Positions 42,601-45,600 of a DNA stretch of 64,000 nt are shown here, in pieces. The DNA is taken from NCBI RefSeq assembly GCF_054482595.1, contig NZ_CM137008.1; one strand, given 5' to 3'. Each line of letters starts with the position of its first letter. Position 1 is the first letter of the stretch. Made by a program: the position numbers.

Positions 42601-45600
42601 ATTGATAAAGTGAATTTCATGCATAACCTCTATACTGGATTCTTTTGGCAATTTCATTACAATGAACGTGAATATTTAAAAATAAATCGTTCTGGTATTT
42701 CAAACAGCAAAACATTTCACTTCCACTTTAATTTTAATGATTTGCGAGCTCTTTACAGCAGTTATAATAAAAATCATAAAAATGATAATCTTTATGATTT
42801 TGATAGTTTTGATAAAATGCAAAAGATATTTTTAGCGTTGAATGTATTTAAGGAAAGAACGGAAATAAATTACAGGGATTATAGAAAAGTATCAAAATAT
42901 GTAGATGATAAAGTCGATTTATTCTCTGGCATTGAACGATATTTACTGGGGGTAATTGAGAAAAATAATAGCTATAATGAGGAAAATTATGGTAATAAAA
43001 AAGACAAATATGCCAAGCTTATTTATGAAAGAAATTATTTAGTCGCTACTAAGGATCAATTGATTAATGAGAGTTTTGAATTAAATAATAAAGACAATAA
43101 AGATAAAAAAGATGTAGCCAGAATTAATGAGATTAATGAAATACTAAAGACAATAGATGGAAAACTACCAAATATAAGTGATGAGATTCTACATCTTAAG
43201 GATGAAACAGAGAGATTGGAGGAAGAGTATCAACAAGAAAATACACTTAATGATGTAGTTCAAAATATCAGGCGTTGGCTAAAAGAAAATGAAAATATGG
43301 TGAAAGCTATTAAGAAAATTGATACTAATAACATGGCGAATAAATAAACGGATCAAGTCGTTCCTGTGACAATGAGGTTATACGAAAAAGACGCTTACGC
43401 ATTAGAAATCTGGTGTACTTTAATTAAACCAGTGTCGCTGATGTGTAAGCGTCGACGTTGGGAGACGATTAAATTGTTATATCACCGCTACGCCCTTTCC
43501 AGACGGCGTATAAGAGTGCAATATGTTGAGTTTTCCGAGTGAATGGTGCATTTTATTAACCGAGCCATTTGAATAAGCCAACGCAATAAAACAGACTGGA
43601 ATAATAAGTCTGTATTTATTGTTCATCACAATCGCACTCTACGGTTTTATCCTGCTGAAATGAGACAGCCTCCAGCGTTTGTGGATGATCCTTGAACGAG
43701 AGTCATGGTCTGGTGTCAGGATTCACAAATGACCTGTTTCCTGACATGGATATAAACCCAACATAGAGTGCGGTAGTTAATCTTAAAAATCTATAGTCGG
43801 CTACTCAGCACAAAACATCATTATTGATTCTTTATAAGAAAGAATCTCGCCATCATTTTTATATAAATCACTATTAAGGAAATCCAGAAACTCTTGCCTT
43901 ACACTATAAATATTAGCTTTTTGGTCAACTAATGATAATAATATATCCTTGACACCTTTTAATTTTATATCTCTATCAGATATTGTATTAAGTGTGAAGA
44001 TGATATTACGTTTATTACAACTGGAGAACCAATATTTTAGAATATTATTCGTCCACTTTGTTGGTGTCTTAATTAGTTGCGCTGTTGTTGTTTTAACATT
44101 ATTAAATGTAGAACCACTAAAATTTGTCCCGACGCATGAAATAAAATTCATTTCTGAATTATCAAAATTACAATTCTTTATCTCACACATATCAAAATTA
44201 ACATCATGAAATGTCGAACATTTCATGTCTGCATGTGAAAATAAACATGCAATAAACGTTATATATTGCAACCTGGAATGACAAAAAGATTTATTTTTAA
44301 AGTCAAAAGAACAGGTTTTTTTGATTTTGAAGTTGTTATTGTATCTGCAATATAAAGAAATCATGTTTTTTATTAACTGATAACACCACTGTGATGATTC
44401 TGGTAATTCATTGGGGTATAAATGGAAGTTTTCATCGAATATAACCTGTGCATTATGGTTGTTTATTGATGATATATGAAAGCTATAATTTGTTAAAGCT
44501 ATGGTTGTGCTAAAATTATGGTGGTGATCAGCACTCATAAAATCAAATGTAACAATGTCGTGGTTTCCTTTCTTTTCTTTGTGATATGCGTTTAAAAAAG
44601 AAATATTTTCGATCTGTTCATCAGTTAATGTAAATGGCATTTCGTCATCAAAGAAAGCGTAATCGGCATTTGGGAGAGGAATACTCTCAATTGAGCATAG
44701 TTTTAATAAAAAAACATGAAAACAATGAAACATGTTTTTATGCATAAGAGAACTTAATCTCTGTTGTATCTTCTGTAGTTGTCCTTTAGGAAGTAAATGC
44801 TGTAAATTTGAAAAAGAGTCATCTAAAATATATTTATATGTAAAAATGTCATCTCTTGGACCATTTATTAAAAAATCGTCAGACAATTTAGAAAAACGAT
44901 TGAGATGACATAAATATTCCATTTGCTCCATGTCTATATAGTTATGGGGAACTGCGTGGTTTGGTGGTGTGCCAATAAGATTATCCATAAATCACCTTGA
45001 TAAAATTTAATAAAATCTCTTTATTTTAACCTCGACAATAAAAGCGGCTATAAAAAAACGCTCATTTTCTGATGCTGCGGTTAACCTGTGGAATGTGCCG
45101 TTAACCCCCTAAAAATTGCAAATCCAGGGTGAACACCCTGGGTTAAAATGGAAATAATGAGCTATTTTTTACAGTATTCACCGGTAATATAAGTAACACT
45201 TGTTGCTAACCTAACTAGCAGTACGGTTAATTAACAACATAGAAGTTATTGTTTTTCAAACAACTCAATATTGCACGCCGGAGGATTTATGGTCGCTAAA
45301 TTAAAACCAGATGTTTTTGTTAATACTAATCCTTTTTTAGAAGCAATGTATAAGGAGAGGCTTAGTCATAAAGGCTATTCTGATAAAATTGCTTTAAGTA
45401 TTAATGATAAGAAATATAATGTAAACTCTAAGGATATTGAAAATATTCTTGATGGCAAAGGGGATTTATTTAAAAAACGTACACTGTGGGAGTTTGTTCG
45501 CGATCTTTTTCCTGGATCTCATATTAAAGAAGTCAAAGGCTTAATTTACGAATTTGTCACGAAAGTTGATAACAAAGCCGAGGTGTTCGATAAGATTAAA

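Follow-up and report, generated by a model that had tools for sequence, protein, structure and literature searches.

Does the small open reading frame (ORF) that lies between two effector genes of an Escherichia coli virulence island encode a protein, or is it a by-product of the way in which the surrounding DNA was put together? The frame in question has 49 codons and occupies the minus strand of the 453-nt spacer (43348-43800) that separates the convergent genes 1 and 2 of an AT-rich island in contig NZ_CM137008.1 (NCBI RefSeq assembly GCF_054482595.1). We analysed a 64,000-nt stretch of this contig, hereafter the window, to which all coordinates refer (Table 1). A sequence-only reading had proposed a gene for a small exported or membrane protein, with the hedge that the ORF may be non-coding or a remnant. 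It was the hedge that proved right: the spacer appears to be a composite relic of the core genes cbrC and yieH. Judging from the sequence, we are highly confident that the ORF is a chance reading frame across this cbrC'/yieH' pseudogene scar, a by-product and not a gene.

The reading frame and the relics beneath it

The ORF at 43626-43477 translates as had been given. It starts 174 nt past the gene 2 stop codon on the same strand, in agreement with the earlier estimate of about 175 nt, and a GTG one codon 5' of the ATG would give 50 amino acids (aa). The spacer was correctly described as less AT-rich than its flanking genes, with a GC content of 0.41 versus 0.29-0.31 for the three island genes. 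Likewise, the ribosome-binding site (RBS) is as weak as had been thought: the 30 nt before the ATG read AGCAGGATAAAACCGTAGAGTGCGATTGTG and their sole RBS-like element is a GAG about 10 nt from the start. A scan of the minus strand from gene 2 to the ORF found no promoter-like site. When the spacer was shuffled, an ATG-initiated ORF of at least 49 codons occurred in 610 of 2000 cases (30%), and the length of the frame is thus no more than chance expectation. An overlapping antisense ORF (43366-43542, plus strand; 58 aa from a GTG, 56 aa from an ATG) spans the hairpin and the yieH relic described below and is most likely due to chance.

The strongly hydrophobic N-terminus stands as an observation. 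A positively charged n-region (K4, R6) is followed by a 12-residue hydrophobic run, and residues 7-17 (LIIPVCFIALA) have a Kyte-Doolittle mean of 2.96. On the same scale a 19-residue window averages just 1.27, and the run would be too short for a transmembrane helix. Immediately after it, common alleles have VD, VV or NH instead of AY.

An explanation for these properties is provided by the composition of the spacer. On the minus strand its order is cbrC'(6-49) :: yieH'(108-127) :: deletion :: yieH'(~204-221) :: hairpin block T', where the numbers are codons of the parent genes. The cbrC piece is recognized at three levels. In a distant-mode nucleotide search, 43579-43696 is 75.6% identical to the 5' part of cbrC of K-12-type genomes. 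With tblastn, cbrC codons 6-49 align to 43711-43580 with 61% aa identity (E 8e-17) across two in-frame stops. Lastly, the translated relic matches the Pfam family PF03691/UPF0167 at profile positions 3-41 of 174 with E 1.9e-4 and 21.7 bits, which is under the 25-bit cut-off.

The yieH pieces follow directly. The middle of the ORF, SNGSVNKMHHSLGKLNILH, matches residues 108-127 of the resident YieH, which is encoded 4.2 kb away (BLASTP 17/31, E 1e-10). At the nucleotide level, 43513-43572 shares 76-79% identity with the resident yieH and 84.5% with the strain N64 allele. About 240 nt are missing between this piece and the C-terminal one, and the deletion shifts the frame. Beyond it, 43380-43503 is 75% identical to the last yieH codons and about 90 nt further downstream (47744-47868). 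The two ends of the spacer (43712-43800 and 43348-43379) have no homology to cbrB, to yieH 5' sequence or to the K-12 locus. Short aligner matches to yieH upstream of 43600 were dismissed as chance. By these alignments the spacer would be a scar of core-genome fragments between the convergent effector genes, and its GC content would exceed that of the island genes because it is old core-genome DNA.

The path of the reading frame through these pieces can be traced codon by codon. In its own frame the cbrC relic reads ...VECDCDEQ*IQTYYSSLFYCV, and the ORF begins in the +1 frame of the relic, where GAT GAA CAA TAA is read as ATG AAC AAT AAA. Its first part, MNNKYRLIIPVCFIAL, comes from cbrC codons ~36-49 read out of frame; intact K-12 cbrC, translated by hand in the same frame, gives VNNRRQFITRVPFIAL. 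At the junction, where ...TATTGCGTT meets GGCTTATTC..., the ORF falls into the true yieH frame. Past LH the internal deletion shifts the frame again, so that the tail SYTPSGKGVAVI is the out-of-frame 3' end of yieH and the terminating TAA is not yieH's own stop. In our proposal, a chance ATG in the cbrC relic would open a reading that runs through the cbrC'/yieH' junction into the yieH frame, passes the frame-shifting deletion and ends at a TAA after 49 codons. Because the frame runs across relic pieces, both the hydrophobic N-terminus and the conserved-looking middle would be inherited accidents. The 'signal-like' character of the former would arise from reading a T-rich, decayed cbrC in the wrong frame, and the protein-like character of the latter from its having once been part of a working YieH phosphatase.

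Comparison with the parent families supports this composite nature. ORF codons ~19-38 can be aligned, in frame, to the strand and loop of YieH that bear HAD motif II (residues 108-127), and the last 35 nt of the ORF are homologous to the yieH 3' end. However, only about 20 of the 221 YieH residues are in frame, the tail being frame-shifted and the head derived from another gene. Motif II is the only catalytic motif kept (ORF SNGSV..., YieH VVSNGPV). Motif I (DxDGT) has no counterpart, since neither the ORF nor the whole spacer contains YieH residues 1-107, which hold FFDCDGT; the motif III lysine and motif IV (DD) are absent as well, codons ~128 to ~204 having been deleted. No Pfam HAD match was obtained for the ORF, in contrast to the resident YieH (E 6.5e-22). 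As far as its motifs predict, the ORF product could not be a phosphatase. Similarly, 43580-43711 is homologous to codons 6-49 of CbrC (YieJ; PF03691/UPF0167, colicin E2 tolerance protein), but the ORF reads this relic in the +1 frame and encodes none of CbrC, and no uninterrupted frame covers the family profile.

The word 'unannotated' needs qualification. It holds for the RefSeq annotation of the identical strain XH990. Many GenBank records nonetheless contain called allelic versions, under the names 'hypothetical protein', 'putative phosphatase' or 'phosphoenolpyruvate and 6-phosphogluconate phosphatase', some of these names being found in UniRef as well. In two strains the Prokaryotic Genome Annotation Pipeline (PGAP) places a partial pseudogene exactly on the yieH' piece. 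A homologue search returned no relatives of the ORF outside E. coli.

Table 1. Coordinates of the ORF, the relic pieces and the surrounding genes in the 64,000-nt window.
Feature	Position	Strand	Remarks
AT-rich island, whole	40379..47839		K-12 homology ends at 40378 (end of phoU) and restarts at 47840 (end of yieH)
Gene 1, EspY5-type effector ORF, 843 aa	40816..43347	+	Convergent with gene 2 across the spacer; PMC6313403, PMC4048457
T' block, copy of the sequence 3' of resident yieH, with a 64-nt hairpin	43380..43468		75% nt identity to 47744-47833; folding; inverted repeat
yieH' C-terminal relic, ~codons 204-221 (HIALLYAVWKGRSGDIT)	43469..43525	-	tblastn with K-12 YieH residues 204-220; DNA alignment to 47834-47868; translation
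49-codon ORF, probable chimeric pseudo-ORF	43477..43626	-	Codons 1-16 cbrC +1 frame; ~19-38 in-frame yieH; ~39-49 out-of-frame yieH 3' end
yieH' internal relic, YieH codons 108-127 (SNGPVSKMQHSLGKLNMLHY)	43513..43572	-	In the ORF's frame; BLASTP, nt identity, PGAP pseudogene
cbrC' relic, codons 6-49 of K-12 cbrC	43580..43711	-	Two in-frame stops; ends at codon 49 (...TATTGCGTT); nt, tblastn, Pfam
Gene 2, 395-aa pentapeptide-repeat protein / putative type III effector	43801..44988	-	Relics probably lie in its 3' untranslated region
Gene 3, EspY4-type effector, 802 aa	45289..47697	+	
T block, hairpin region directly 3' of resident yieH	47744..47833		Counterpart of T'; not in K-12 and N64 type loci
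Resident intact yieH (6-phosphogluconate phosphatase, HAD family)	47834..48499	-	RefSeq annotation; Pfam HAD_2 E 6.5e-22

Allelic variation, transcription and competing readings

If the ORF were a gene, its alleles should carry the mark of coding constraint. Every one of the 1,094 island-bearing complete genomes has a match to the spacer, and in 1,089 of them the match covers 80% or more of its length. From complete genomes and from contigs with called ORF versions we compared eight distinct full-length spacer alleles, which are 88-100% identical and all contain the same mosaic. Variable sites make up 19% of the ORF versus 25% and 22% of the flanking spacer, and pairwise divergence is 7-9% within the ORF versus 5-12% in the flanks. 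By codon position the variable sites of the ORF are distributed 7/13/9, without a third-position excess. The sequence-only reading had looked to conservation (dN/dS) in homologous islands. Pairwise ratios of non-synonymous to synonymous differences (pN/pS) are 0.47-0.71 on 4-5 synonymous and 7-10 non-synonymous changes; they are not significantly different from 1 (Fisher p 0.17-0.51) and demonstrate no purifying selection. The yieH' piece considered separately has accumulated changes at 5/8/2 sites by codon position since truncation, which suggests that constraint on it has been gone since then. These patterns indicate no coding-type constraint on the ORF, whose region diverges like its flanks, and the stretch would have been drifting neutrally since truncation.

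Interruption in related islands had been named as a result that would speak against a gene, and it is seen in part. In O157:H7 the ATG has become ATA and the upstream GTG has become GCG. The RMDEC465-type island allele (a third allele, 5 genomes, ~78% identical) has lost most of the ORF, and what is left of it is frame-shifted. Tails with a shifted frame also occur in some database versions. On the other hand, seven of the eight full-length alleles keep an open frame with unchanged start and stop.

The RMDEC465-type allele lacks window positions 42480-43579, which hold T', yieH' and the 3'-terminal third of gene 1. The endpoint of its deletion falls within about 2 nt of the cbrC'/yieH' junction, a coincidence in position. 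We considered whether this allele, whose gene 1 end could be taken for a natural C-terminus abutting cbrC', represents the ancestral state and rejected the idea: the end of its gene 1 is collinear with internal gene 1 sequence, and it is therefore a deletion derivative.

Transcription of the stretch probably ends in the T' block. The arms of its hairpin (43390-43405 and 43438-43453) are followed by CTTTTT on the minus strand, and the folding free energy is -23 kcal/mol on the minus strand (z -3.7) and -36.5 kcal/mol on the plus strand (z -5.2). A simple terminator scan misses this hairpin because its loop is over the limit of the scan. Probably this hairpin is the terminator for gene 2, in which case the ORF would belong to the 3' untranslated region (UTR) of that gene. 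We propose that the stretch is transcribed solely as this 3' UTR, up to the T' hairpin, and that any translation of the ORF would be incidental. Two copies of the 64-nt hairpin exist in the window (43390-43453 and 47754-47817), each between convergent genes.

Several observations weigh against a mere chance frame and would fit a young micro-protein, born of the fused cbrC and yieH relics, translated from the gene 2 transcript and equipped with an N-terminal signal peptide or membrane anchor. The frame keeps an identical start and stop in most island alleles, as described above. Among the 16 N-terminal codons, five of seven variable sites are at the third position (binomial p ~0.045, uncorrected for several partitions), and the 11 residues MNNKYRLIIPV are invariant wherever the ATG is intact. 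The n-region and hydrophobic run do resemble a signal peptide. Furthermore, the ORF lies 5' of the hairpin terminator and is probably transcribed together with gene 2, and a class of composite out-of-frame ORFs has been described from the E. coli pangenome, where remodelled families of this kind are termed 'ORgenes' (Watson, Lopez and Bapteste 2021, PMC8788219). Our ORF resembles these in being a called ORF of in-frame and out-of-frame pieces from two unrelated families, found in E. coli only, and it has the composition by which they are defined; it differs in showing no sign of being a working gene. The open frame is in fact uninformative, because the alleles have diverged by ~9-12% without indels, and at such divergence its survival is not unexpected; nor does it speak for decay. 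Over its whole length the ORF has no coding signature, and the hydrophobic run itself varies at key positions (C/F/G, then D or NH in common alleles). In addition, the large O157:H7 lineage has lost the start codon, and both the weak RBS and the chance-level length count against a gene. A ribosome-profiling catalogue of intergenic small genes in O157:H7 Sakai has no entry for yieH or for ECs4653-4657, the locus tags guessed for this island; the evidence is weak, since this strain has no ATG. With no coding-type substitution pattern and neither a convincing RBS nor a promoter of its own, the gene for a small exported or membrane protein finds no support, and we regard a translated micro-protein as very improbable. 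Slighter still is the chance that the scar has been co-opted as a new gene, whose 49-residue exported or membrane-inserted peptide would be made from the 3' end of the gene 2 mRNA with a signal formed de novo from the alternative frame of a dead gene.

The stretch might instead act as RNA, either as a structured 3' UTR or as a 3'-UTR-derived small RNA of gene 2 that ends at T', in which case the ORF would be irrelevant. The long, stable hairpin just 3' of the ORF and the U-run after it on the minus strand would suit such a role, and in a comparison of nine sequences from both copies its stems hardly vary, unlike the loops and flanks. However, a compensatory change (GU to CG) is seen in only one of 21 pairs, Rfam gives no match for the ORF/hairpin region or for either hairpin copy, and the ORF region evolves as fast as its flanks. 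A terminator role explains the hairpin adequately, and of the possibilities considered here a functional RNA seems to us the least probable.

Origin of the join

The yieH' piece retains a record of its past. Between its 20 in-frame codons and the resident yieH, differences occur at 10-11 of ~12.5 synonymous and at 3-5 of ~47 non-synonymous sites (pS 0.8-0.9, pN 0.06-0.11, Fisher p 3e-7). Since this divergence is almost purely synonymous, the parent of the relic would have been a working yieH for most of its divergence, and the sequence points to either a deeply divergent allele or an orthologue. Within E. coli, yieH alleles are themselves very divergent for a core gene: that of the window is 79% identical to K-12 at the nucleotide level (pS 0.62, pN 0.09) and 93% identical to N64. 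Such divergence suggests that the phoU-yieH region has very old haplotypes or has been imported repeatedly.

The order of the pieces is also informative. In the intact locus the minus strand reads yieH-cbrB-cbrC, but in the scar cbrC' precedes yieH'. Rather than a simple insertion, the reversed order implies a junction formed by duplication or by illegitimate capture. Because the mosaic is common to all full-length alleles compared, the scar is older than the diversification of the island. We favour a scheme in which one illegitimate join between cbrC codon 49 and yieH codon 108 would have created the mosaic before the island alleles diverged, possibly when island DNA was duplicated or captured beside yieH.

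Two models of this join could be envisaged. It could be the junction of a tandem duplication whose unit ran from yieH codon 108 via the island genes to cbrC codon 49; duplication of such a [yieH-hairpin-espY] unit would create exactly the cbrC49::yieH108 junction. However, genes 1 and 3 share only 31% aa identity (44-67% at the nucleotide level) and are far more diverged than T' and T, although these ages are not directly comparable because the hairpin stems are constrained. Moreover, almost exclusively synonymous divergence is unexpected for a yieH copy truncated at birth, and the duplication model holds only if a different allele has since taken the place of the resident yieH. Alternatively, the join could reflect a homology-anchored illegitimate capture, in which an incoming adeP-yieH-T-gene 3-gene 2-cbrC... 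segment entered a resident yieH that had an EspY5-type gene and a hairpin beside it. Neither gene 2 with an intact cbrC after it nor gene 1 beside an intact yieH, which would be donor or intermediate arrangements, was found in island-bearing complete genomes, in a contig scan or in a gene 2 protein search.

Whichever model applies, the feature appears ordinary in kind, a core-gene relic at an island junction. Like other truncated relics of this type, it consists of core fragments of higher GC content (0.41) stranded among acquired AT-rich genes in all alleles examined; it differs by its unusual order, with the cbrC piece upstream of the yieH piece.

The effector island and the significance of the scar

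Around the site the E. coli chromosome has the order pstA-pstB-phoU, AT-rich block, yieH (minus strand), adeP, and throughout this region it is 100% identical to strain XH990. The block has a GC content of 0.29-0.36 versus ~0.52 elsewhere in the window. This 7.46-kb island stands between phoU and yieH in place of ~9.4 kb of K-12 DNA (bglGFBH, yieL, yieK, cbrC, cbrB) and is present in about 1,094 of 5,426 complete E. coli genomes. Its borders precede the stop codons of phoU and yieH by 13 nt and 6 nt, respectively; being inside the last codons of both genes, they imply that the 3' ends of both are supplied by the island. The island is the EspY4/EspY5' locus of enterohaemorrhagic E. coli, Z5212-Z5214 in EDL933 (PMC6313403, PMC4048457). 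EspY proteins are SopD/PipB2-like effectors of the type III secretion system, and EspY5 is a pseudogene in O157:H7 (PMC6313403, PMC4048457).

In the window gene 1 is uninterrupted at 843 aa; it is frame-shifted or split in O157:H7 and other strains, and the RefSeq annotation of the identical strain XH990 has only an 84-nt 'partial' pseudogene at its start. A 56-nt block 5' of gene 1 (40649-40704) is 78.6% identical to a block 5' of gene 3 (45125-45180) and may be a shared promoter or regulatory element. Gene 2 is called a type III effector in some annotations. A protein search found no homologues of gene 2 outside E. coli. A scan of genome contigs with gene 2 gave a single match, the 4.4-kb contig JAIJJM010000244.1 from a metagenome-assembled genome labelled 'Collinsella sp.', which encodes gene 2 at 92% identity and is almost certainly misbinned E. 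coli DNA. Further low-GC patches (0.34-0.46 versus ~0.52) at ~17000-18000, 28000-31000, 34000-36000 and 56000-59000 suggest additional horizontally acquired segments in the window.

The ORF has little biological significance, and the value of the result is mostly practical. The ORF should stay out of annotations as a small secreted protein, and the database name 'phosphoenolpyruvate and 6-phosphogluconate phosphatase' is misleading for a 49-aa product. The scar may nevertheless serve as a historical marker. It would record that the present EspY4/EspY5 island formerly contained cbrC and a second, deeply divergent copy of yieH, and that a single illegitimate join is older than the diversification of the island alleles. 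If the scar had been co-opted after all, it would represent a traceable gene birth inside a virulence island. Finally, the cbrC49::yieH108 junction could be a breakpoint preserved from the assembly of the two-effector island and, if so, would be usable to reconstruct how the island was put together.

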